From NCBI GenBank assembly GCA_049512075.1, contig JBEKXL010000004.1, positions 1 to 64,000 of the forward strand: 64,000 bases of DNA. Direction: 5' to 3'. How positions within the stretch are numbered: position 1 is the stretch's first letter; every line of letters begins with the position of its first letter. The notes under the pieces were generated by a model, which had not been told where the DNA came from, ran no database searches, and was given only the letters and a program-made list of their open reading frames with translations. Positions 5,113 through 42,325 of this stretch are shown here, piece after piece. The position numbers were made by a program, and so were the translations under genes. Source of the stretch: Candidatus Bathyarchaeia archaeon. GTDB lineage: Archaea > Thermoproteota > Bathyarchaeia > Bathyarchaeales > Bathycorpusculaceae.

Positions 5113-6405
5113 TCAGGTCACCCTCTCAAGAGCATAAAGAATGGCCGCCGAGACTATGAATGACAGTATGCTTGAACCCAGCGTCGTAAAAAGATATAAT
5201 ATGAAATAGACAACCACTCCTACCAGCCAAGAGACTATCGATTTTATCCTGAAGCTGTTTTCCGACGAATAGAAGTCTTTCGGTTCATATTGTCTTTTCC
5301 TGATAATGTAGAAGTCCATTGCGAGCACGCCTAGTAGAGGCACGAAGATAGCTCCTATGTATATTAGGAAGCTTTCGTAGGCTCCTTGCCAGTTTTGAGG
5401 CATCAACGCCGCCAAGAAAACACTGACTAGCGTTATTAACGTGAAAAGTTTCCACTGCTTGGTTTTGGGCGATATGTTCTGTATCGACACCGCGCTGGAA
5501 TATATATCTGCGAAACAGTTGTCTGTTTCGTCAACCACCAATAGGACAAGGGCTAGGCCTCCGAAAGTGATGGAGACTATAGAGGAGATTATCTGTTCTC
5601 CTGAGTAGGCTAAGACAAGGAAGGCGCCCAAAACGTAGAACCATGAATTGGCGAAAGCGTAGCCTGTGAAGGTTCCCCAAAAAGCTCCTCTTTCATCTTT
5701 TGAGAACCTGTTATAGTCTGATATCAGGGGCCACCATGATATCGGCATTGCTATGACTAGGTCAAGGGCTAATGTTATTGGTAGCGACCCCCCTCCGCGA
5801 AGTGTAAAAAGCTGAGGAAATCTTGTGAGCACGGTATAGGTTAAGAAAGCTGCTGTTCCAAAAGTGATCCATATTGCAAACTTCTCCAGCCACTGTCTTA
5901 CAACCACTAGCGGGCCCCCTATGCAGAGAAGATAGCAGAAAACAGCAAAGACGGCGATCCAAAAATAAATGGTATATGAACCCACAAACGGGCCCGTGAC
6001 AATCAAGGCAGAGTTGGCCATTATCAATATCTCGAATGCGGTCCATCCAACCAGTTGAACAGCATTAAGCAATGCCGGTACGTAAGATCCCTTCAATCCG
6101 AGGGTTGCTCTTAGACTCACCATTGTAGGTATGCCATATTTGCTTCCCAGACCGCCTGCCAATGCTAACATGAGAGAACCTATTATCGAACCTAACACAG
6201 CAATAAGTACTACTTCCACCAATGAAAGGCCCTGAGTGAGAAATCCGCCGGCTTGAAGCACGAGTAAACCAACCGAGAGACTTGACCAAAGAATAAAGTA
6301 ATCGAATGACCTTAGAACTCTCTTATCTTTTGGTACTGGTTCTGTCCCCCATTCGGGAGGCAGCCTAACAGTCAGCTTCCCTTGATGGTCCTCTGCTTCC
6401 CCCAT
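5113..6405 (-). CDS. cytX: NCS1/cytosine-permease family transporter, CytX-like (HMP uptake)
   Basis: Multi-TM, DYNRF motif; ATG at 6405 immediately after the TPP aptamer. Confidence 0.85.
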   Translation of the reverse strand: MGEAEDHQGKLTVRLPPEWGTEPVPKDKRVLRSFDYFILWSSLSVGLLVLQAGGFLTQGLSLVEVVLIAVLGSIIGSLMLALAGGLGSKYGIPTMVSLRATLGLKGSYVPALLNAVQLVGWTAFEILIMANSALIVTGPFVGSYTIYFWIAVFAVFCYLLCIGGPLVVVRQWLEKFAIWITFGTAAFLTYTVLTRFPQLFTLRGGGSLPITLALDLVIAMPISWWPLISDYNRFSKDERGAFWGTFTGYAFANSWFYVLGAFLVLAYSGEQIISSIVSITFGGLALVLLVVDETDNCFADIYSSAVSIQNISPKTKQWKLFTLITLVSVFLAALMPQNWQGAYESFLIYIGAIFVPLLGVLAMDFYIIRKRQYEPKDFYSSENSFRIKSIVSWLVGVVVYFILYLFTTLGSSILSFIVSAAILYALERVT

Positions 6406-6500
6406 TTTCCCTCCGCCAGCATTATCTGGGTCAGGTTCCAAGGGTCGACGATGTTCAACCGTCCTCTCAGCCGGGTCACCTTCCCAGCTCCCCTAAACCT
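6404..6500 (-). promoter_or_regulatory. TPP riboswitch
   Basis: Minus strand reads AGGGGAGCTGGG..CCCGGCTGAGAGG..GACCCTTGGAACCTGACCCAGATAATGCTGGCGGAGGGAA, matching the TPP aptamer consensus; upstream of thiamine genes; TTTTATA box at about 6525-6531. Confidence 0.93.
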
Positions 6501-6659
6501 TTGGAGGACAGTTGTACTTATCGGTATAAAAGCGTTCTGTGTGAAACTCTATATTTCAATGGGTTCTCTTTTGCATTTAGCAGCTCTCTCCTCATCATAT
6601 CTTTCAACGCTGGGCTTAAACTTTTAACTTGTTCTTCGTCGCAAGACGTAGGCGCGCGC

Positions 6660-6850
6660 TTGCCAGACCTATCCATTCTGTCTTTATACCCATGGCAACA
6701 CTACCTACAATCCCTGACTACTGCAATGAAAATTACATCTGACATTACAAATAAAAGGGCTGAGTCCACTCTGAACAGTAGTCCAGCCTGATTTTCTCCA
6801 TGGTTTGTTACCACACACATTACATCGGACATTACAAGTGAAGGGGGGGG
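6660..6850 (+). repeat. Dispersed intergenic repeat, copy A
   Basis: Aligns by eye with 33707-33850 (+) and 42135-42325 (-); ATTACATC(T/G)GACATTACAA at 6732 and 6819. Confidence 0.9.
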
Positions 6851-14511: not shown

Positions 14512-14610
14512 GGGCCCGTAGCTCAGTAAGGACAGAGCACCGGACTTTTAGGCTCAATGCTAAGCATGGAAATCCGGGGGTCCCGGGTTCAATTCCCGGC
14601 GGGCCCGCCA
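14512..14610 (+). tRNA. tRNA-Lys(UUU) with 21-nt intron at 37/38 (14551-14571), CCA encoded
   Basis: GGGCCCG/CGGGCCC acceptor stem, CCGGA-CT-TTT-A..A-TCCGG anticodon arm, CCGGG-TTCAATT-CCCGG T arm. Confidence 0.93.
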
Positions 14611-18133: not shown

Positions 18134-18590
18134 ATCCCTCCGGTCACCTCTATGAGATGCTATCTCGCTTTCACCCTAAGAATTCTGCCCTGCCAAAACA
18201 ATGGCTCATTCTGCGGCTTTCAATTTCGAATTAGACTAAAAATGTCAACTGACTTCATTTCGAACCATTGACTCCAGTCTTGAGTTTAAACGAATACGGC
18301 AATCCGTGCAAATGTGGCTGCGATAAAGCCAACCGCGCCCGCAAATGGTGGTAAAAAACCAAAATCATTAAAACCACGAAGCCGAAGGAGAAAGAGGCAA
18401 GCTTCTCGCAAAAATGTTACGCCCTGGTTGCCTCGCCATAATAGTATTCCAATGCACGCGTGTGCGCGAAGGATCGCCTGCGGATTAAGGTTATATGCCG
18501 AGGACGATGGAGATGTCTCCCGCAAATCCCCCTTTTTCTTTTTTTGATGCGGTCTGGTCGGCGAATTAGGAAAGTCTGAGGTGAATTTTT

Positions 18591-19475
18591 TTGGCTGGGG
18601 CTCGTGGAAGTAAAAATTCTCGCCGTTCAAAGTACAAAGTAAAATTTGACTTCACTACTGTTCGCACGTGGATCCTTCCTATCTTACGTAGAATCCAGGC
18701 CGGGGACTACCCGACTAAGATTGGGCGCTTGGTAGGCCTGAGCCGGCAACACGTTCACTACTATCTCAAGAAACTTGAGGAGTGCAAGCTGATTCATAGA
18801 GAGAAACGGTCCAGTGTGGTGTTCTATGAGTTGACTGGCGGCGGTACAAACTTTCTCAGGTCATGTGAGGGTGTGGTTTTTCCTGGGGAGCTATACAGAT
18901 TGGATAAGTGTCAGGTTGGTTTTGGGATAAGGGTTGAGGGTATCGTGCCGTCGGATGGGTTTAGGCGGGTGGAGATGCAGAATTGGACGGCTTTGTTGGG
19001 GCTGGAGCAGGGTGTGAAGGTTCGGCATACTAGTAGGAGTTGGATTGTGCACGTGGAGGTTATTCGGGGTAAGAGCCCGGCTGAGGTTTACGGTTTAGCG
19101 TTGAACGTTGCCAATCGGGTTGCTGTAGCCTTGTGCAGGAAGTACGGTTGCGTGTTGAGTGAGGGCAGGTTTATGGCGGGTGAGCTGGCTGTTGAGGACC
19201 CTGTGGCAAAATTGTTCGGCCGCTACTTCACTGTAAGTACGCCAAGGCGAGAGATTGATCACAGTTGGAAGGTCGGTGAGCTCGAAAACTTGCAGAAGGA
19301 TGCGGTTATCGAGTACCTTCAGATGCCGGAACGCGTGAAAAAGATGGAAGGACAAGTTGAGCGTTTGCACGCGGATCTCGAGGAACTCACTGGAGCTCTG
19401 AAAAGATTTCTTGGCTTGGAAGGCGCTGCGCAGCCGAGCGCTGATCAAAGTCGCCTTGACAGGTGTGTGGCTTAG
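18591..19475 (+). CDS. N-terminal wHTH protein with uncharacterised central domain and C-terminal coiled coil
   Basis: PTKIGRLVGLSRQHVHYYLKKLEECKLI helix-turn-helix; GAGGTGA RBS. Confidence 0.75.
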   Translation: MAGARGSKNSRRSKYKVKFDFTTVRTWILPILRRIQAGDYPTKIGRLVGLSRQHVHYYLKKLEECKLIHREKRSSVVFYELTGGGTNFLRSCEGVVFPGELYRLDKCQVGFGIRVEGIVPSDGFRRVEMQNWTALLGLEQGVKVRHTSRSWIVHVEVIRGKSPAEVYGLALNVANRVAVALCRKYGCVLSEGRFMAGELAVEDPVAKLFGRYFTVSTPRREIDHSWKVGELENLQKDAVIEYLQMPERVKKMEGQVERLHADLEELTGALKRFLGLEGAAQPSADQSRLDRCVA

Positions 19476-19649
19476 GGGGTGTTTTGGAAGTGAAGTCGTG
19501 TTCAAAGGCGGTTTTGGGGCTAGTGTTGGGGTATGGTAAAAGTCCATGCTTTTGGGCGTGTGCTCTTCTTGTCTCTGTTGATGTGGGTTGTGGAAGCTCT
19601 GGTTTCGCTGTCTTCAACATGGCCATTATGCTGGAGTGAGCGTTTCTGA

Positions 19650-20120
19650 ATGGAGACTAACGCTGAACCTGTTCAAACATCGAGAAAAAAGCGTTTACAA
19701 GAGGTGAAAGTGGGTAGGGTCAAGTACACTTTGCAGTTGGTCAAGGGGATTCAGCGTGACATTGAAGAGATTAAACTTGCGCAGCGCACTATCTTAGCAG
19801 GCTTAAAGGGTCTTTTCCATTTTGAACGGCCTGTGATTCAGAGAATTGCGTGCGCAAATGAGGTTGATGTTGAGATCCTGGAGCTTTTGTATGAGTCTGG
19901 ATCCGCCGGTATGCTGCCGAAGAATTTGGCTGCCGGTTTGATTGATTTCAGGGTTAGGCGCCATCAGGTTAGCCGCAGGATCCTGCGCATGAACAAGCGC
20001 TTAGAGAAGGAAGTGGGTGAGCGATTGGTTGAGAAAAGAGGTTGGCACTGGGCGCTTACAAGTTTCGGGTTCAATGTTTGGGGAGAAACTGAAGAAATAA
20101 GGAAACCACAGGCGAAGTGA
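19650..20120 (+). CDS. Hypothetical protein with probable C-terminal wHTH
   Basis: DVEILELL..PKNLA..RHQVSRRI..VEKRGWHW pattern. Confidence 0.65.
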   Translation: METNAEPVQTSRKKRLQEVKVGRVKYTLQLVKGIQRDIEEIKLAQRTILAGLKGLFHFERPVIQRIACANEVDVEILELLYESGSAGMLPKNLAAGLIDFRVRRHQVSRRILRMNKRLEKEVGERLVEKRGWHWALTSFGFNVWGETEEIRKPQAK

Positions 20121-20323
20121 AGGGTTAGCGCGCACTGTAAGCTGTAGGACCCAATAAATCTGAAAGGGGAAAAGAGAATATGAACAACGAACAGGAGAAA
20201 GCAAAATCGAGTTTAGCGCTCTGCGCTAAAACAAGAAAAGCTCTGCTTCTGCTCTTCCTCGTGTATTGTTACAGAAACTCCTGATTTCATCATTTATTAT
20301 TAGGGCACGCGCGTGCTGTCTCA

Positions 20324-20638
20324 TTACTCTCCGGGCGGCATGCCCAACAGAGCGAGTATCAATAGGATTATTATCACAGCATAAGTCACTATTATGGTCC
20401 AGAAGAATATCTGGGCAACGTTCGTTAGGATTTTCGCCTTTTTCGACTGTTGCCTCCAATGGTGAGCGCAGGACGATATTATGGCAAGCGCGAAGATGGC
20501 AAGCGCGAAGATGGCAAGCAACAGTAGCCCATTCATAAAAACATACCACAGCGGGAACAGGGCAGAGCCAATTCCCGCCAAAACAGCAACCACGTACAGG
20601 GCAAACCTGTATCTTTCAATAGTGCTCACATTGCTCAA
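20324..20638 (-). CDS. Small membrane protein
   Basis: Three hydrophobic segments; internal 15-bp tandem repeat. Confidence 0.5.
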   Translation of the reverse strand: MSNVSTIERYRFALYVVAVLAGIGSALFPLWYVFMNGLLLLAIFALAIFALAIISSCAHHWRQQSKKAKILTNVAQIFFWTIIVTYAVIIILLILALLGMPPGE

Positions 20639-22961
20639 ATCCTAGCGGGCGCTTCCTGGTGTGCACCTTGACGGATTTCTTCTTCGCCAAAATGATAACT
20701 GTTGGCAAGCTGACGCATATTAGTAAAACGACAAAACACGAAAATTCAGGTATAGTTCTCCAAGGTTCTGGCGGCTTATTCAGTACATAGAGAGCTAGGC
20801 ATGTTGTTTCAACATTTTCTGTTGCGTTTCGATCTGGAATTATGCCTGGTAGGTAATCTGTTCTAAATCCTCCATTCGGCATCTGCATTTGACAAAGTAT
20901 CTGAGTATAGTTGTAAGGAATGCTTTGTCCCAAAATCTGGCTACAGATCAGGACCAAAGCGACCTTGTAAGTCTGGTATTCATCCCCAGATTTGCCGTCG
21001 TTGACGCCTTCTGGCGTGCACATAGTATTAACCAATGTTGCAAAATCTGTGAGAGCTTTCGTTCTGTTGTTGAGCCACCATTCATCAATGATTCCGTACA
21101 CGAATAAGTCGGCATAGCTTTGCCAATCCGGTATCTGTATGTATTTTCGGTCATTTCTGACGATGAAACTACCGCTATCGATTATTCTCTCCGCTTCAAA
21201 ATCATCCGCATACAACTCGCCAGTTCCGTTCGTTGTCAAGAATCTCACATCTGCATAGCGAGCTTCGGATGGGCAAGTAAAATTGAACAGCACCAGTTGT
21301 GTCCAATTAGAATAGGTTCCGGGGCATATCTGTGTGAAGTTCTCTCCGATCCATTGTTGCGAGCTGTTGAACCATCGAAGATAGATGTACCAGTTGCCAC
21401 CGGTTACGTTGCCTTCCACGTAACATCTGACCAAGTAGTTTCCTAGGGGTTCTACAGTGAAAATGCTGGATGTCCAATCAGCGTCATCGGAAGTGACATT
21501 GAGCCCAATACTCTTCAGTCCTGATCGCGCATAATCTGATGACCAAGGCGTCGCAATCGGATTTGGAACTAAGTGAGACCAGTTATATGGACTCTGAGAA
21601 CCATTCTCCACGCTTGGATTGAGAATTAAGTTAGCGGTCAGATTCATATCGTCTGCGATGATCGGTGAGTAGTAATCTCCTGTGCTTGTGTAGGGTGGGT
21701 AGAGGATTGTTTTGTTGTTGAAAAGAACTTCGATTCTGTCGTTACCGTCATCGTAGTCTTCACCCACATACTTGCTGTAGTTATCTATAGTACGTCCGAT
21801 TTTGTCTCTAGTATCGTAATGCCCGTAAATGTTGAAGATTTGAAGAAGCAGCGCATTGTCGTTGTATATCCAGTAGGTTTTTGAACCATTGTACTCGCTG
21901 GCTAATCCCACACTATCATTGTAAAGCGACTCAAGAAACTGCAGCGCTTTGTCTCTGTCAAATGTGACAGTTGAACCCTGCGCGCGCGCACACATAATCA
22001 AACTTCTGTGGTAGCCAGTTAGGTCATATATGTATGAGCTACTGTATGCTGATGTAGAGTCGTTACAAGGTTCTATTTGCGTTCTTTCGTGGTACTCGTT
22101 CCAAGTAGAGATCATAATTATAGATGTATTGCCAGAGTTTGCCTCTGTGATGGCTTTGCTCCATTGTTTGTCGTAATAACCTTGTTCATATGTGACGTCG
22201 AATGTTGAATTGGGATTGCGTTGATGTCTGTCATCATATCTTGGACAAACGTCAATTTCCTCGTTTTTGCATACAGGTTGACCTCTTGGAAGATAGGGTT
22301 GGGGCATAGAAGATTGATCATCGAAAGACCAGTAGACCCAGTCAGTATAGTTTTGATGTCCAGATATTCTGGTTGTGAACCTATCATCTTTGGGATATGT
22401 TCCGTTTGGAGTAAAGTAGTCCTGTTGGTTGTATAGAACTATTAAAGGCTTGTCAAGGAAATGGAAGTAGATGCTTTGAAAAGGAGTTACGAATGTATCA
22501 TAGATATAATCATATACGATTGGAAAGTTGTACACTCCACTGGATTGGTTAAAGGTCTCAAATAGTATGGCTGCTTGTATGCTTAGATTGTTGTCCTTGA
22601 TTACCTGAAACACTTTCTTAGCATTGTCGTCAATATAATGGTTCGATGGGTCAGTAAAATTGCCTGCACCCCACCAAGAAATCAGTACAAAATCAATGTG
22701 AATGGCTATCATCTGCTCCAATTGGTTATATAAGGTTACATTGGAATTGGAATCATAGAATCCTATGTCTGGGGTGTCCACAACTTTGTTGAAAGAATCA
22801 TTCCAATGTGCAGTGTCCAAACCGGTACTCCCATTGCCATACCAGACATAATAGTAAATTCCAACCTTCACATTCACTGTAGAGGCAGCAGAGACATAAG
22901 GTTTAGGAACAGAAGCAAAAAAAACAAGTGCTAATATGACTAGTGCAGCTACTTTGGTCAT
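20616..22961 (-). CDS. Secreted, surface-anchored GH99-like glycoside hydrolase with CBM-like domain and PEF-CTERM-like tail
   Basis: Signal peptide; YYVWYG, SWWG, PRYDD and WNEYHERTQIEP motifs; NLILNPSVE..YADDF CBM4/9-like segment; IPEF + TM + KKK. Confidence 0.8.
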   Translation of the reverse strand: MTKVAALVILALVFFASVPKPYVSAASTVNVKVGIYYYVWYGNGSTGLDTAHWNDSFNKVVDTPDIGFYDSNSNVTLYNQLEQMIAIHIDFVLISWWGAGNFTDPSNHYIDDNAKKVFQVIKDNNLSIQAAILFETFNQSSGVYNFPIVYDYIYDTFVTPFQSIYFHFLDKPLIVLYNQQDYFTPNGTYPKDDRFTTRISGHQNYTDWVYWSFDDQSSMPQPYLPRGQPVCKNEEIDVCPRYDDRHQRNPNSTFDVTYEQGYYDKQWSKAITEANSGNTSIIMISTWNEYHERTQIEPCNDSTSAYSSSYIYDLTGYHRSLIMCARAQGSTVTFDRDKALQFLESLYNDSVGLASEYNGSKTYWIYNDNALLLQIFNIYGHYDTRDKIGRTIDNYSKYVGEDYDDGNDRIEVLFNNKTILYPPYTSTGDYYSPIIADDMNLTANLILNPSVENGSQSPYNWSHLVPNPIATPWSSDYARSGLKSIGLNVTSDDADWTSSIFTVEPLGNYLVRCYVEGNVTGGNWYIYLRWFNSSQQWIGENFTQICPGTYSNWTQLVLFNFTCPSEARYADVRFLTTNGTGELYADDFEAERIIDSGSFIVRNDRKYIQIPDWQSYADLFVYGIIDEWWLNNRTKALTDFATLVNTMCTPEGVNDGKSGDEYQTYKVALVLICSQILGQSIPYNYTQILCQMQMPNGGFRTDYLPGIIPDRNATENVETTCLALYVLNKPPEPWRTIPEFSCFVVLLICVSLPTVIILAKKKSVKVHTRKRPLGFEQCEHY

Positions 22962-23052
22962 ATAAAATCCCTCATAAAGCGCGCGTATCTAATACAAGCT
23001 GAGAGGAAACAAGTTGTTTCAAAAAAACGAGTTAGCGCGCGTGCCTAGCAAT

Positions 23053-23790
23053 TTAATCCCTTCCTCTGCAAGCCTCATATCTCGAATCATACAAGTGCCC
23101 CAATACGTAAAAACAAAAGTAGTTTCTCCACCACACCTTGTAGCTCTTTAACAATCCCCATTGTCTAAGTCTTCGACTGGACTCAAAAACGGGAGTTGAC
23201 AACACCTTTGTCCTTCCATAAGACGATGCTTTCAGCAACATATCCGTTATCTCAAGCATGTGAAGTTTTTCGTTAAACCCTTTTATCTTGTAAAAGATGT
23301 CTTTCCTTATTGCAGTCATGTCTCCTCTGTTGTAGAACTTCAATAGAACACTCAGATGAGCGCATAACCTGACGTATAATCCATCTAACACATAGAACAA
23401 GACAGCAGAGAGCGTTTTTCGTCGAGATGAAGGTAATACGCGCGAGATTACTGAAACCACTGCCGTATCTCTGAACTCTTTGGCGACATCAATGAGCGAA
23501 GACTTCTGCAACGTTGTATCTGCATCCATGAAGATCAAGATGCTTCCTTTGGCAAGACTCGCGCCGAAATTCCTTGCTCTAGAAACACCACTGGGAAGAA
23601 ACGTGTACACGTTTTTGACGTATTTCCTTGCTTCTCTAAACGTGTCGTCAGTACTACTGTCTACAACGATTATCTCTGTACTGACCCCGTGTCTTCCAAC
23701 TTGGTCGCTTGCTTCAAGCACCTTCCTCAAAGTTTTTCCTATATACTTCCTCTCATTCCTAGTGGCCAAAATAACTGAAAAGTCTACCAT
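23053..23790 (-). CDS. Family 2 glycosyltransferase
   Basis: SVILATRNE, VVDS.TD, ARNFG, DAD, GFNE. Confidence 0.9.
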   Translation of the reverse strand: MVDFSVILATRNERKYIGKTLRKVLEASDQVGRHGVSTEIIVVDSSTDDTFREARKYVKNVYTFLPSGVSRARNFGASLAKGSILIFMDADTTLQKSSLIDVAKEFRDTAVVSVISRVLPSSRRKTLSAVLFYVLDGLYVRLCAHLSVLLKFYNRGDMTAIRKDIFYKIKGFNEKLHMLEITDMLLKASSYGRTKVLSTPVFESSRRLRQWGLLKSYKVWWRNYFCFYVLGHLYDSRYEACRGRD

Positions 23791-23856
23791 TCAACCACAT
23801 CCCAAAACTGCATTAAGAAGTAAGTGGCAGTTAATTCCTGTCTTCTTGACTACCTT

Positions 23857-23916
23857 GTCAACGATTGTTGACCTACAGCCTGTTTTTCATAAGTGTTGTT
23901 GTCAACAACTGTTGAC
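23857..23916. promoter_or_regulatory. Two GTCAAC-N4-GTTGAC palindromes (putative operators)
   Basis: 23857-23872 and 23901-23916, between the divergent GT2 and ArsR-like genes. Confidence 0.55.
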
Positions 23917-23988
23917 TACCGATTCGGTGATGGTTGATATGGCAAGGATTAATTACAAGTGGTTTACAGAAGGGTTTCAGGACTTGCA

Positions 23989-25122
23989 ATGGTAGATCCT
24001 GCGGAACTCTTTGAGGCTATCTCGCATCCTGAGCGAATAAAAATTCTCAAAATCCTTGAGAAGCAACCTACCAGCTTTGCTTCTCTGAAGAGACAGCTGG
24101 GTATTGACAGCAGCGGGAACCTCGACTACCATCTCAAGAAACTCGGAGAACTAGTGGCAGTCAGAGGGGATGGGTTGTATGGGTTGACAGACGCAGGAAA
24201 AGAAGCACTCCTTTCCATTGACGCAGTAGAAACGTGGGCGGAAATGGAGAGGCGCAAGGTAAAGATGTTCAGGAAAATGCCCAAGGAAGCGTTTGCCTTG
24301 GGGTTGCTGGAAATTTGCACGGCAGCTTTAATCTTCTTGTTCTTCTTGGCGCCAGGGCAATGGCCTTTTAACGGGAGGGACAGCTTATGGGGATATGTCT
24401 TTTTTGGAGCCCTGTTACTCACAGGCTTTCGTTCTGGCCTTGGCGTATTCTTCCGTTGGAGATGGAGTTGGACGATGGTTCTGGCCAAATCAGCCCTGAT
24501 CATGTCAATGAGTCTCTTTCTACTGGACTACATATGGAAACCAGGGGCAGTCACACAATCAAGCTTCGTGGCGCTTTCGTACTTGGCGTTCGTTGCTGCA
24601 GAAATAGCTGCTGTAATCCTGGCATTGAGACGTCCCCTGAAGGATTACCTTGGAATAATAAATTGGGCCAAACTGCCCCGCCGTGACCTCATCGGCAGCC
24701 TACTATGCATCTCCGGCGGAATACTGCTAATTCTTCTTGCAAATGCAGTTCGCTTTCTTGTCCTTCCGCACGCACCAGACTTACAACTACTACCCGACCA
24801 TGTTAGCACAGTTTTCGCCTCTATGTCCGACACATCCATCCTATGCGGCTTACTCATAATGGTTGGAGGCGTTCTAATTCTGCTAAGAAGCAGCATCCTG
24901 GGCGCCGCAATCAGCATTATCTTCGGGCTTTTCCCCACTCAACTTCCACTTTCTATTCCATCCTGGCTTCCACAACAAACCACCCACCACGCTTTCGAGC
25001 TCATTACGGGAATAGACAAATCATCAGCATATCTCTTCGTGATCGCCGCAGTAGTCTATTCTCTACCCATAGTTGGAGGGCTACTTGCTCTATCCAGTGC
25101 GTGGCGAAAAATCCGAACATAG
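23989..25122 (+). CDS. ArsR-like wHTH fused to a multi-pass membrane domain
   Basis: FEAISHPERIKIL..SSGNLDYHLKKL..YGLT..G followed by several TM helices. Confidence 0.8.
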   Translation: MVDPAELFEAISHPERIKILKILEKQPTSFASLKRQLGIDSSGNLDYHLKKLGELVAVRGDGLYGLTDAGKEALLSIDAVETWAEMERRKVKMFRKMPKEAFALGLLEICTAALIFLFFLAPGQWPFNGRDSLWGYVFFGALLLTGFRSGLGVFFRWRWSWTMVLAKSALIMSMSLFLLDYIWKPGAVTQSSFVALSYLAFVAAEIAAVILALRRPLKDYLGIINWAKLPRRDLIGSLLCISGGILLILLANAVRFLVLPHAPDLQLLPDHVSTVFASMSDTSILCGLLIMVGGVLILLRSSILGAAISIIFGLFPTQLPLSIPSWLPQQTTHHAFELITGIDKSSAYLFVIAAVVYSLPIVGGLLALSSAWRKIRT

Positions 25123-25307
25123 CGCGCGTTAGTGAGCGGGAAACAGGTTGAAAGGGCGATAAAAAAGGGGATAATTGCGACCTCAGCCTTGACTGCTTGA
25201 TGTTACTTGAGCGCGCGCTGTCGCTATGGCCCTGCCTTTTCGAAAATCTTGACCCTTCAAGCGCGTGCGAATGATTGGTTTATATGAATTTAAGCAGAAA
25301 GCGAGTG

Positions 25308-25467
25308 CTAAGAAGGCAAGATTTCGTTGCAGACGCGGTAGTGTGCTAGGAATGTTCGTCCTTTGTCTGTGATACTTACTTTGGTGTGTCTCTTTCCTAT
25401 TCGCTCAGATATTATCAAATCGTTCTCGACTAGGGTTCTTGCGAAGAAATAGTTGATGCGCGCGCGC
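25308..25467 (-). pseudogene. 3' half of a small archaeal wHTH regulator
   Basis: ARINY..LVENDLI..ITDKGRTFL is a recognition helix plus wing; N-terminus lost at GCGCGCGCGC 25458-25467. Confidence 0.6.
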
Positions 25468-26129
25468 TCAAAATTGACTGGGATCCACCAAAATACAAGC
25501 AAGAAGAAACATTGCCGTTCGTCCCCGAAGAAAGCGAACTTGACCAGCTTATCGCCGCGTCACGAGGCAAGAGAATAACCGCTTTCCTCCAATGCCTCAA
25601 AGAAACCTACGCGGATCCAGGAGAAGTTCTTGCGCTTCGATGGATAGACATCTCAGGAAACATAATAACAATAAACAAGCCAGTCAAAGGCCATCTCCCA
25701 GGACAAATCCAAGTCTCCAACAAACTGCTCGCAATGCTGAACAGCCTACCCAAAACTTCAGAACGCATCTTTCCAGTAAGATATCAAAGCATTCTTCAAT
25801 CCTACTGGAACCTCCGAAAAAGAGCTGCCCGACTTCAACAGAACCCGAGGCTCCTGGCCATACAGTTCAGATCCTTCAGGCACTGGGGCGGAAGCATGCT
25901 TGCCCACTATACGAACGGAAACGTTCTCACAGTAAAGAAACTGCTAAGGCACAAAAGAATCGAGAGCACGATGAAATACATCAGCATGATACACTTCAAA
26001 GACGACGAATTCGAGGTCACATCGGCCACGACCACAGAAGAGGCCAAGCAGATTCTGAGCGCAGGCTTCGACTACGTAACCCAAAAAGACGGCATAATGC
26101 TCTTCAGAAAACCCAAAAGATTCCGCTAA
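25467..26129 (+). pseudogene. 5'-truncated tyrosine recombinase/integrase (catalytic domain only)
   Basis: LKIDWDPPKY..LPFVP, FRSFRH, LLRHK.I.ST.KY; integrase-like sequence begins at the GCGC run; no N-terminal domain. Confidence 0.82.
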
Positions 26130-26208
26130 AAAACCAGTGGTATACACGCAAAACTAGTCGGATTAAGGTTATATACTATTTCGGTTTTTGTTATTGTCGG
26201 TCGGGCAA

Positions 26209-26372
26209 CGGGCGGTAGCTCAGCCTGGCAGAGCTTCCGAGCCAGCGTAGGTCAAAGGATTTTAGCTGGCGGAGACGCTGTAGACGTCTGCCAAAGGTGG
26301 GCGTCACCCAGCCTACCAGGCGTACACGCAGATACCGGATTGTCGCAGGTTCAAATCCTGCCCGCCCGACCA
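26209..26372 (+). tRNA. tRNA-Tyr(GUA) with two introns (30/31: 26240-26276; 37/38: 26284-26333), CCA encoded
   Basis: C1-G72 acceptor CGGGCGG/CCGCCCG; spliced arm TCCGG-CT-GTA-GA-CCGGA; GCAGG-TTCAAAT-CCTGC T arm; TTATATA box about 26169. Confidence 0.88.
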
Positions 26373-33632: not shown

Positions 33633-33706
33633 TTCAATGCTTAACAATTTCAGGCCTTTATTTAAACACCTACGGCAGGTAGAGTCATTCGGCGCGCGCG
33701 CTAACT

Positions 33707-33850
33707 CTGCCTACAGTCCCTGACTCATACATTGAAAATTACTTCTGACATTACAAACAAAAGGGCTGAGTCCACTCTGAACGGTAGTTCAGCCTGTTTT
33801 TCTTCATGGTTTGTAATAATACAGATTACATCTGACATTACAAGTGAAAA
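33707..33850 (+). repeat. Dispersed intergenic repeat, copy B
   Basis: Homologous to 6700-6845; flanked by GCGC runs at 33692 and 33910. Confidence 0.9.
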
Positions 33851-33980
33851 AAGGAAGCGACTTTGAAGAGCTATGATTCAAAAGGTGTTTCAGCATACTT
33901 GAACTAGCAGCGCGCGCGAGTAAAATCGAGTGCCGCTTGCAAGAGGATTTTCTGCAAGCTAATCGGACAAGATATTGTTT

Positions 33981-41903: not shown

Positions 41904-42134
41904 ATCAATCCCGCATATAGCATGGGGCTAACCGCTTTTAGCATTTACGTATATCGGTGTTTTTTCACTGTATTCCGAGAGTTTCTTCAGCGCGCGCGAC
42001 GATTCCGCGTTGTACATCAAAGGCGACGACAGAAAAACCAGCATCAGCAAACAGGGTAGCGGCGCGCTCTACTGCAACTCTCAGAATTTTCTCGACTAAG
42101 ATCTCAAGCCAGCCATACATGCCCTTCAAGGTCG

Positions 42135-42325
42135 CCCCCCTTTCATTTGTACTGTCAGATGTAATGTTGCATTGTTACAAACCATGAAGAAAAACACACT
42201 GGGCTATCCTTCAGAGTCGACTCAGCCCTTTTGTTTGTAATGTCAGATGTAATGTGTATTGTAATAGACCAGGGATTGCAGGTAGTTGCCCGTGGCACAA
42301 AGACAGAATGGCTAGGTCTGGCAGG
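42135..42325 (-). repeat. Dispersed intergenic repeat, copy C (inverted)
   Basis: Reverse complement aligns to copy A, including GCCAGACCTA.CCATTCTGTCTTT. Confidence 0.9.

Follow-up and report, generated by a model that had tools for sequence, protein, structure and literature searches.

Two genes that point away from each other on a contig of a peat archaeon (Candidatus Bathyarchaeia) both lack their 5' ends, and the two losses meet at the same ten bases. Why should this be so? We analyzed a 64,000-nucleotide stretch of DNA (the window, to which all unprefixed positions refer), which forms the start of contig C4 (C4:1-64000) in a metagenome assembly, G000, with 86 contigs and 2.73 Mb in total. 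The ten bases are an alternating run, (GC)5 (GCGCGCGCGC), at 25458-25467, and they weld together two gene tails, one from an integrase gene and one from a small winged-helix regulator gene. Our favored explanation, which we consider somewhat probable, is that the run is a rearrangement scar in a decaying integrated element, produced by a lineage-specific, run-associated DNA-joining process. We hold with good confidence that it is a rearrangement joint carrying GC bases that came from neither gene, and we propose only tentatively that a specific break-and-rejoin mechanism is anchored on such runs.

Two gene remnants at a GC run

To the right of the run lies a plus-strand integrase remnant (25466..26129) with a catalytic domain and a C-terminal extension, lacking the Zn-ribbon and core-binding domains. 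The frame reads ARA-LKIDWDPPKYKQEETLPF (in a longer reading, ARA-LKIDWDPPKYKQEETLPFVPEESELDQL) and ends at a stop codon at 26127-26129; there is no in-frame ATG at the joint, and the first in-frame start is a TTG at 25512. Its only Pfam domain match was the catalytic Phage_integrase domain (PF00589; score 27.6 bits, cut-off 27.1; residues 25-175 aligned to profile positions 5-166 of 172). The genome holds 17 matches to this family, and nine long paralogs have open frames of 314-446 amino acids with the PF00589 match at the C-terminal side. We examined the closest full-length relatives from genome and metagenome collections, 17 loci at 72-90% amino-acid identity. These carry 175-298 further N-terminal residues, with a Zn ribbon and a core-binding domain, ending in ...FVYAYDAFTRMLKI.W (AYDAFTRMLKI.W). 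None of the 17 starts at the break position of the window, and the 5' sides of all of them lie inside their contigs. No fragment of the integrase N-terminal domain was found anywhere in the surrounding island, which is described below. Because the N-terminal DNA-binding domain that full-length members of this archaeal subfamily use for core binding is absent, we file the fragment, from its domain content, as a gene remnant and not a working integrase.

To the left, on the minus strand, a winged-helix remnant resembling HTH_45 (25308..25469) lacks about 29-32 N-terminal codons, as judged by profile, homolog and DNA comparison. It reads (E)RAR-INYFFARTLVEN...ILPS* (more fully, ...F-ERAR-INYFFARTLVENDLIISERIGKRHTKVSITDKGRTFLAHYRVCNEILPS), with its stop codon at 25308-25310. 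The HTH_45 profile (PF14947) matched over positions 42-74 of 77 only, at 17.4 bits and thus under the cut-off of 25.5, so that the frame falls short of a full winged-helix domain; a full-length paralog of 83 amino acids on contig C2 matched profile positions 6-75. Seven homologs were collected at 77-94% identity, four of 82 amino acids, two of 69 and one of 55. The four 82-residue proteins start about 29-32 residues earlier, with the N-terminus MSRRSRKDAAAEVLEQI..SPN.APSR.FARAG before INYFFA. A further match in the relative G004 was dropped as a nucleotide comparator, being a distant relative at 34% identity. The earlier note on this DNA had read both frames as beginning mid-protein and the run as the joint of the two genes. 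Both readings stand: at least 175 codons are gone from one gene and some 29-32 from the other, and the alignments below place the joint at the run.

Nucleotide alignment to full-length relatives located the limits of homology at the run edges, on the integrase and regulator sides alike, with no continuation across the run. Integrase relatives read ...aggatGC followed by tgaagatt..., and the window reads GCGCGCGCGC followed by tcaaaatt; the first matching bases are the last GC of the run, and nothing matches upstream. At the break position, four of four listed homologs have atGC followed by t.aa, and atgct is present in 10 of the 11 nucleotide-aligned integrase relatives. For the regulator, the two relatives with DNA read GCC AGA/AGG GCA GGC before ATC/GTC AAC, and the window reads GAG CGC GCG CGC before ATC AAC, so that homology begins at ATCAAC or at most one GC earlier. 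Each parent gene can therefore have supplied no more than one terminal GC, and at least six of the ten bases were added or derive from a third DNA. A plain two-base microhomology joint would leave a single GC, and those six or more bases lack a parental source. Between the two origins that the earlier note had offered for the run, shared microhomology or addition, the answer is thus divided: one GC may be parental in each gene, but most of the run is not.

That note had also counted the promoter region between the two genes among the losses; the implied picture, a single deletion that removed the shared promoter of adjacent divergent genes, is not supported. A relative of the regulator is absent from the 3-4 kb flanks of 25 + 79 (= 104) related integrase loci, and an integrase is absent from all nine loci of regulator relatives; the two genes were therefore probably never neighbors.

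Might the joint be an artefact, or a natural form of the gene? The assembly is a metagenome assembly of 86 contigs and could contain chimeras, and split integrases occur in archaea, which raises the possibility of an SSV-type integrase half or a naturally short gene. However, a 280-nt contig from sequencing run X5 (Logan contigs), whose sample and study code are not those of the possible source runs, bridges the joint at 25306-25585 with 0 differences, with 152 and 118 nt on its two sides. An 11.4-kb contig from X1, possibly the source sample, spans 24800-26243, also with 0 differences. A contig from X6 (25177-25327) crosses the neighboring GC run at 25211-25218 with 0 differences, and another contig crosses the run at 25122; parts of the window left uncovered in X5-X7 carry no evidential weight. 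The joint is real DNA. GC runs at orthologous places are, moreover, common to independently assembled genomes. An SSV-type split would place the 5' break at an att site or tRNA, but here it adjoins the regulator remnant, the right direct repeat of the island lies after the integrase 3' end, and no N-terminal half is present at the other island end. A naturally short gene is opposed by the starts of the 17 relatives given above. Readings of this kind are largely refuted, and we consider them extremely improbable.

GC runs and breakpoints across the genome and its relatives

Within the window, GCGCGCGC has 18 matches (14 separate runs) where 0.87 are expected, and none of 100 shuffles reached 18. 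Across the genome it has 646 matches, as against 20-21 for GGCCGGCC and GCGGCCGC. Alternating GC runs of at least 8 nt number 581, with lengths of 8, 9, 10 and at least 11 nt in 284, 186, 105 and 6 cases, respectively. They are preceded by A at position -1 and followed by T at +1 in 58% of cases each, and no other flanking position is conserved. Only 60 of the 581 lie inside open reading frames (ORFs) of at least 150 amino acids, which make up 72% of the genome; about 90% are outside.

These runs coincide with the ends of homologous segments. Among endpoints of intragenomic repeat high-scoring segment pairs (HSPs), 220 of 3498 fall within 6 bp of a run, a zone that comprises 0.44% of the genome and that captured 0.6-2% of shifted controls. 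An HSP endpoint is near 100 of the 581 runs, and an HSP spans three of them. Six of the seven truncated integrase 3' fragments in the genome start at a run, every one at a different codon (in the window, on C40, at about 45.1 kb of C18, about 336.2 kb and about 2.85 kb of C1, and about 17.9 kb of C12); the seventh, at about 40 kb of C18, has no run at its start. A run at an integrase truncation was also seen in other Bathyarchaeia contigs (L083, L085, L098, L136, L142 and L145). Native GC is present at the break in all four listed homologs of each of three junctions (window, L083 and L136) out of ten that could be evaluated; one shared base was found in three more and none in the remainder. 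The broader claim of the earlier note, that the motif is a breakpoint, is supported on a genome-wide scale: several hundred runs mark DNA breakpoints in this lineage, and no described mechanism accounts for them. We also observed an integrase fragment consisting of the N-terminal domain only (G000:C12:67508-67708, minus strand), which ends at the linker position ISWTP with a GCGCGC hexamer and then TAG.

We compared G000 with G002, a genome of the same genus at about 95% identity. Of the 66 runs on G002:C1, five lie in the 105 kb that aligned with G000. Aligned blocks of the two genomes include seven run loci, two conserved and five polymorphic, the latter including clean 8-bp and 11-bp indels and an apparent three-base patch (GCGTCTGCG vs GCGCGCGCG). 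Of 57 block borders, 7 are no more than 5 bp away from a run, where about 1% would be so at random. At several runs common to both genomes, one flank is kept and the other is replaced from the run edge. In one place a coding-like stretch of 279 bp in G000 corresponds to tgGCGCGCGCGag in G002, and neither breakpoint in G000 has a run. Elsewhere, a 4.8-kb segment specific to G002 is bordered by CGCGCGC on one side and by a degenerate GCGTGCGC on the other; it contains surface proteins and no recombinase.

One way to obtain such a pattern is recombination between two pre-existing GC runs, one in or beside each gene, with deletion of the intervening DNA and a single run left behind. The runs would then behave as numerous short identical repeats, a role reported for the cyanobacterial palindrome HIP1. 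The genome offers hundreds of identical 8-10-bp palindromes as substrates, segments with runs on both sides are common, and the 4.8-kb segment of G002 fits a loss between runs in G000. We nonetheless judge this account unlikely. The nine long integrase paralogs have runs within 1.5 kb and none inside the gene, none of the 11 nucleotide-aligned relatives has a run at the break, and the regulator relatives carry the codons given above at the site. The cut falls at a different codon in every one of at least 11 integrase fragments, so that the runs are not all ancestral to the integrase gene, and the G002 run that stands for 279 bp of G000 replaces DNA free of runs at either breakpoint. What the data demand is that at least one partner of many joints was free of a run beforehand, that runs are recurrent breakpoints, and that they are gained or lost as units of 8-11 bp.

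The motif is abundant in a patchy set of relatives. It has 168-646 matches in all five genus genomes and 227 and 439 in two other genera of the family; elsewhere in the family, counts are 30-53 in a few genomes and 0-7 in most. The signature is lineage-specific. Such a distribution, which recalls the cyanobacterial palindrome HIP1 (discussed below), would also suit a functional intergenic signal, that is, a binding site, a structural element or a palindrome kept by biased repair, which truncated genes adjoin by chance. The strong intergenic bias, the palindromic consensus A(GC)4-5T, the sharp length limit at 10 and the three-base patch all fit such a signal. Against it, only two of the seven run loci in aligned blocks are conserved, the precise cutting of six of the seven integrase fragments at runs is not predicted by a passive signal, and no C5 methyltransferase rose above the cut-off in the five genus genomes. 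We regard this explanation as very unlikely.

A mosaic island beside tRNA-Ile

The joint lies near the right end of an island of 7.66 kb (18497..26159), comprising an element remnant and cargo, which occupies the region upstream of a tRNA-Ile gene and is absent from G002, where the flanks are 95% identical. The island is framed by a 15-bp direct repeat, GGATTAAGGTTATAT. The left, att-like copy is at 18482..18496, and the right copy, at 26160..26174, begins 30 bp past the integrase stop and ends 35 bp before the tRNA; the empty site of G002 has one copy. The tRNA-Ile(GAT) gene (26209..26372, plus strand) contains an 89-nt intron at the non-canonical position 31/32 and was found with ARAGORN with introns allowed; default ARAGORN and Rfam miss it. 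This is how an integrase element that has integrated next to a tRNA gene is laid out. In G002 (G002:C1 ~210770-210880, locus L023), about 78 nt are missing from the ortholog of this tRNA-Ile, its entire 3' half among them; a deletion, splitting of the tRNA or a gap in the assembly could each be the reason.

The interior appears to be a mosaic of modules bounded by runs. Two ORFs of helix-turn-helix (HTH) type occupy the left end. A GH99-like ORF of 781 amino acids follows (20616-22961, minus strand), inside which a (GC)5 run at 21980..21989 is read in frame as CARA, about 20 residues past the end of the GH99 match; this ORF is possibly a gene fusion at the run. In the metagenome contig L145 (~2700-2800), the fragment KDDRFTTRISGHQNYT, which shares words with the GH99-like ORF, is joined via (GC)5 to a truncated integrase. 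Next comes a module (23044..25121) of a GT2 glycosyltransferase (minus strand) and an ArsR/DUF7347 membrane protein (plus strand) that is 86% identical to a different locus in the relative G003. In G000 it is flanked by GCGCGCG runs at 23035-23041 and 25122-25128. The latter overlaps the stop codon of the HTH-membrane gene (387 amino acids), and homology to G003 ends there. An 82-bp spacer (25129-25210) separates this module from the regulator remnant, whose 3' boundary is a (GC)4 run at 25211..25218, the run crossed by the X6 contig. The regulator piece, 239 bp with runs at 25211-25218 and 25458-25467 on either side, therefore resembles a single patch within a mosaic whose pieces end at runs, and the integrase remnant comes last.

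Bracketing of this kind raises the possibility of mobile cassettes, with the run as a target-site duplication or as minimal ends and the 239-bp regulator piece inserted into the integrase gene. The bracketed regulator piece and G003-shared module fit such cassettes, as do run-flanked segments that substitute for other DNA between G000 and G002. So does a repeat of about 290 bp resembling a miniature inverted-repeat transposable element (MITE), with 37 blastn matches and two internal copies of ATTACATCTGACATTACAA, of which six full copies have a run at either end (e.g., G000:C8:6406-6697). The repeat occurs in the window at 33703-33917, 6697-6842 and 42121-42285, and its partial copies are cut by runs at varied internal points. 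Nevertheless, an insertion predicts the 5' part of the integrase beyond the insert, and none is present in the island. The two ends of the repeat share no similarity and no inverted repeats beyond the run, so that it lacks the terminal inverted repeats past the target by which, together with a cognate transposase, MITEs and insertion sequences are recognized. Rather than one element family, the inserted pieces comprise ordinary genes and fragments of genes. Spacing between runs shows no peak pointing to a single element, with clustering below 300 bp only. Among the longest repeat families we saw no multicopy transposase, although transposase families were not searched individually; these long families were rejected as transposons, being TATA-binding-protein paralogs, surface proteins and similar. 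We accordingly consider mobile cassettes improbable.

At least five TATA-binding-protein paralogs are present (G000:C27:11817-12961, C1:104869-105483, C4:130996-131676, C21:1673-2363 and C32:6582-7270), and several of these blocks end at GC runs. Two RNA features of the window lie outside the island. A match to the thiamine pyrophosphate (TPP) riboswitch, here in an archaeon, is located at 6391-6504 on the minus strand (65 bits; gathering score 54.3), with GC runs at 6652 and 6855. A tRNA was called by Rfam at 14512-14610 on the plus strand (60 bits); ARAGORN gave it an undetermined identity and a two-base 'anticodon', so that it probably contains an unusual intron or loop.

A candidate joining process and its relation to known systems

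Together, these observations suggest a sequence of events at the locus, although its order, the breakage at runs and the mode of joining are inferred. A tyrosine-integrase element would have inserted beside tRNA-Ile, leaving the 15-bp direct repeats, and its interior would later have been rebuilt piecemeal. In the course of this, (GC)5 may have come to link the 3' two-thirds of the integrase gene with an unrelated piece of DNA that holds the 3' two-thirds of a small winged-helix gene. The joining process, limited to this Bathyarchaeia lineage and a few others, would leave or use (GC)4-5 runs at joints. The runs would act as recurrent points of breakage or recombination, with flanking DNA lost or replaced precisely from the run edge, and a run would survive or be regenerated, sometimes absorbing native GC as 1-3 bases of microhomology. 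Joining might proceed by end-joining or by microhomology annealing of self-complementary GC ends. Deletions that extend from a run into an integrated element would stop on the far side at the essential tRNA, which may be the reason that 3' tails of integrases survive.

A bolder version, which we think doubtful, is that some Bathyarchaeia have a dedicated way of sealing broken DNA, in which ends receive or regenerate a self-complementary (GC)4-5 tail so that any two ends can pair and be ligated. The tail could come from slippage synthesis or from the opening of a hairpin across the palindrome. Each cut at a run would yield two run-bearing ends, so that runs would multiply, and as fragile or joining sites they would cut integrated elements down to dead integrase tails and move modules about within the flexible genome.

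Several observations weigh against the favored explanation of a scar left by a run-associated joining process. Away from runs lie 50 of the 57 synteny borders. Four large indels between G000 and G002 have no runs at their borders (G000:C30:13482-19122, G000:C18:31915-34891, G002:C1:130180-130883 and G002:C1:159604-164804), and three of them have short direct-repeat ends (e.g., TTATAAATA, AAGCTTAATT). They are probably ordinary integrated elements, and runs accordingly mark one class of events and not all. By our reading, 17 of 23 N-truncated integrase loci of other contigs have no run at the break. The polarity of run gain and loss is not settled by the outgroups G001, G003 and G004, because their homology ends before the variable spots. 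At the locus itself, the integrase remnant retains an open frame of 223 codons, which makes selection on it possible, and the 55-residue regulator homolog, from a protein database, starts three residues upstream of the break, although it may be a partial gene call.

The enzymes that might be expected to accompany such a process give it no support either. We performed a phyletic-pattern search for enzymes that track the runs in 41 genomes (G000 and 40 relatives). G000 encodes a Ku homolog (G000:C16:6054-6590, 140.7 bits), and Ku is present in five of the 40 others. Its carriers are G000, G002 and G004, together with three run-poor genomes (G010, G020 and G040). In three run-rich ones (G003, G018 and G021) the search detected no Ku, but these are 93-98% complete, so that its absence there is unproven. 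Ku was therefore rejected as the run-making enzyme, since its presence does not track run density. The C5 methylase family PF00145 was below the cut-off in each of the five genus genomes. The pattern of N6/N4 methylases did not match that of the runs, and PF01555, present in 38 of the 41 genomes, is uninformative for that reason; methylase specificities are not readable from sequence. ResT/TelK resolvases (PF16684) were found in none of the 41 genomes at E up to 0.1. No searched enzyme family tracks run density. Outside this set, the catalytic-domain family of ResT/TelK matched one of 14 control genomes, that of Synechococcus elongatus, a HIP1-rich cyanobacterium; the match may be coincidence.

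In the literature searched, we found no paper tying the motif to Bathyarchaeia or to archaeal intergenic DNA, and the locus is a clean, well-controlled example of a lineage-specific junction signature that has apparently gone undescribed. Should a joining process make or use the runs, they would be a footprint from which past DNA breakage and repair could be read in an archaeal class that is abundant and hardly cultivated, and would show where integrated elements were disabled and gene modules swapped. They would also point to an enzyme activity undescribed for prokaryotes, either palindrome-anchored joining or sequence-defined filler. Annotators of these genomes should regard any gene that begins or ends at such a run as a fragment or a fusion.

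Filler DNA, including N- and P-nucleotides, occurs at end-joining junctions, both in eukaryotic V(D)J recombination and non-homologous end joining (NHEJ) and in bacterial Ku/LigD joining. The GC runs resemble such filler in their non-parental bases at the joint and 0-3 bases of microhomology, in the Ku gene of G000, and in being palindromic, as is expected of the product of hairpin opening. They differ in that known fillers vary or are copied from nearby, whereas here the filler is constant alternating GC of 8-10 bases, and in that the presence of Ku does not follow run density. Deletions adjacent to insertion sequences and the scars of telomere fusion in Borrelia are similar in another respect, namely that a fixed short sequence stays while adjacent DNA is lost or exchanged, which gives mosaics of modules. 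However, the runs have no insertion sequence beside them, the repeat families considered above yielded no multicopy transposase, and the Borrelia parallel lacks its ResT/TelK-type resolvase in all 41 genomes. Repetitive extragenic palindromic (REP) elements with RAYT transposases likewise number in the hundreds as short palindromes between genes, and their spread is patchy and lineage-specific (PMC2817692). REPs are imperfect hairpins of 20-35 nt with a conserved head; the GC runs are 8-10 nt long with unconserved flanks.

The closest described parallel is HIP1. HIP1 also occurs within genes, with conserved positions, and a deletion ending at HIP1 was reportedly described by Gupta et al. in 1993. 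It is a GC-rich octameric palindrome, as is the GC run, from which it differs only in the two central bases; both are many-fold over-represented in their lineages, the feature that marks HIP-type sequences, and both are of unsettled origin. PMC4390886 and PMC5861425 present HIP1 (GCGATCGC) as an over-represented, lineage-specific cyanobacterial octamer whose function is unsettled and which has been linked to methyltransferases, to recombination and to the uptake of DNA; it is tied to orphan methyltransferases (PMC4390886), and further papers address it (10.1101/2024.09.10.611283 and PMC13756078). The reported ties to recombination, to the insertion of tiny mobile repeats and to DNA uptake are a further likeness. 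The GC runs differ in lying about 90% outside long ORFs and at truncated gene ends, in the poor conservation of their positions between genomes that are 95% identical, and in the lack of a detected C5 methylase. If the favored explanation is correct, the runs would represent a second, archaeal case beside HIP1 of a lineage filling its genome with one short palindrome, and their breakpoints would offer a handle that HIP1 does not provide.

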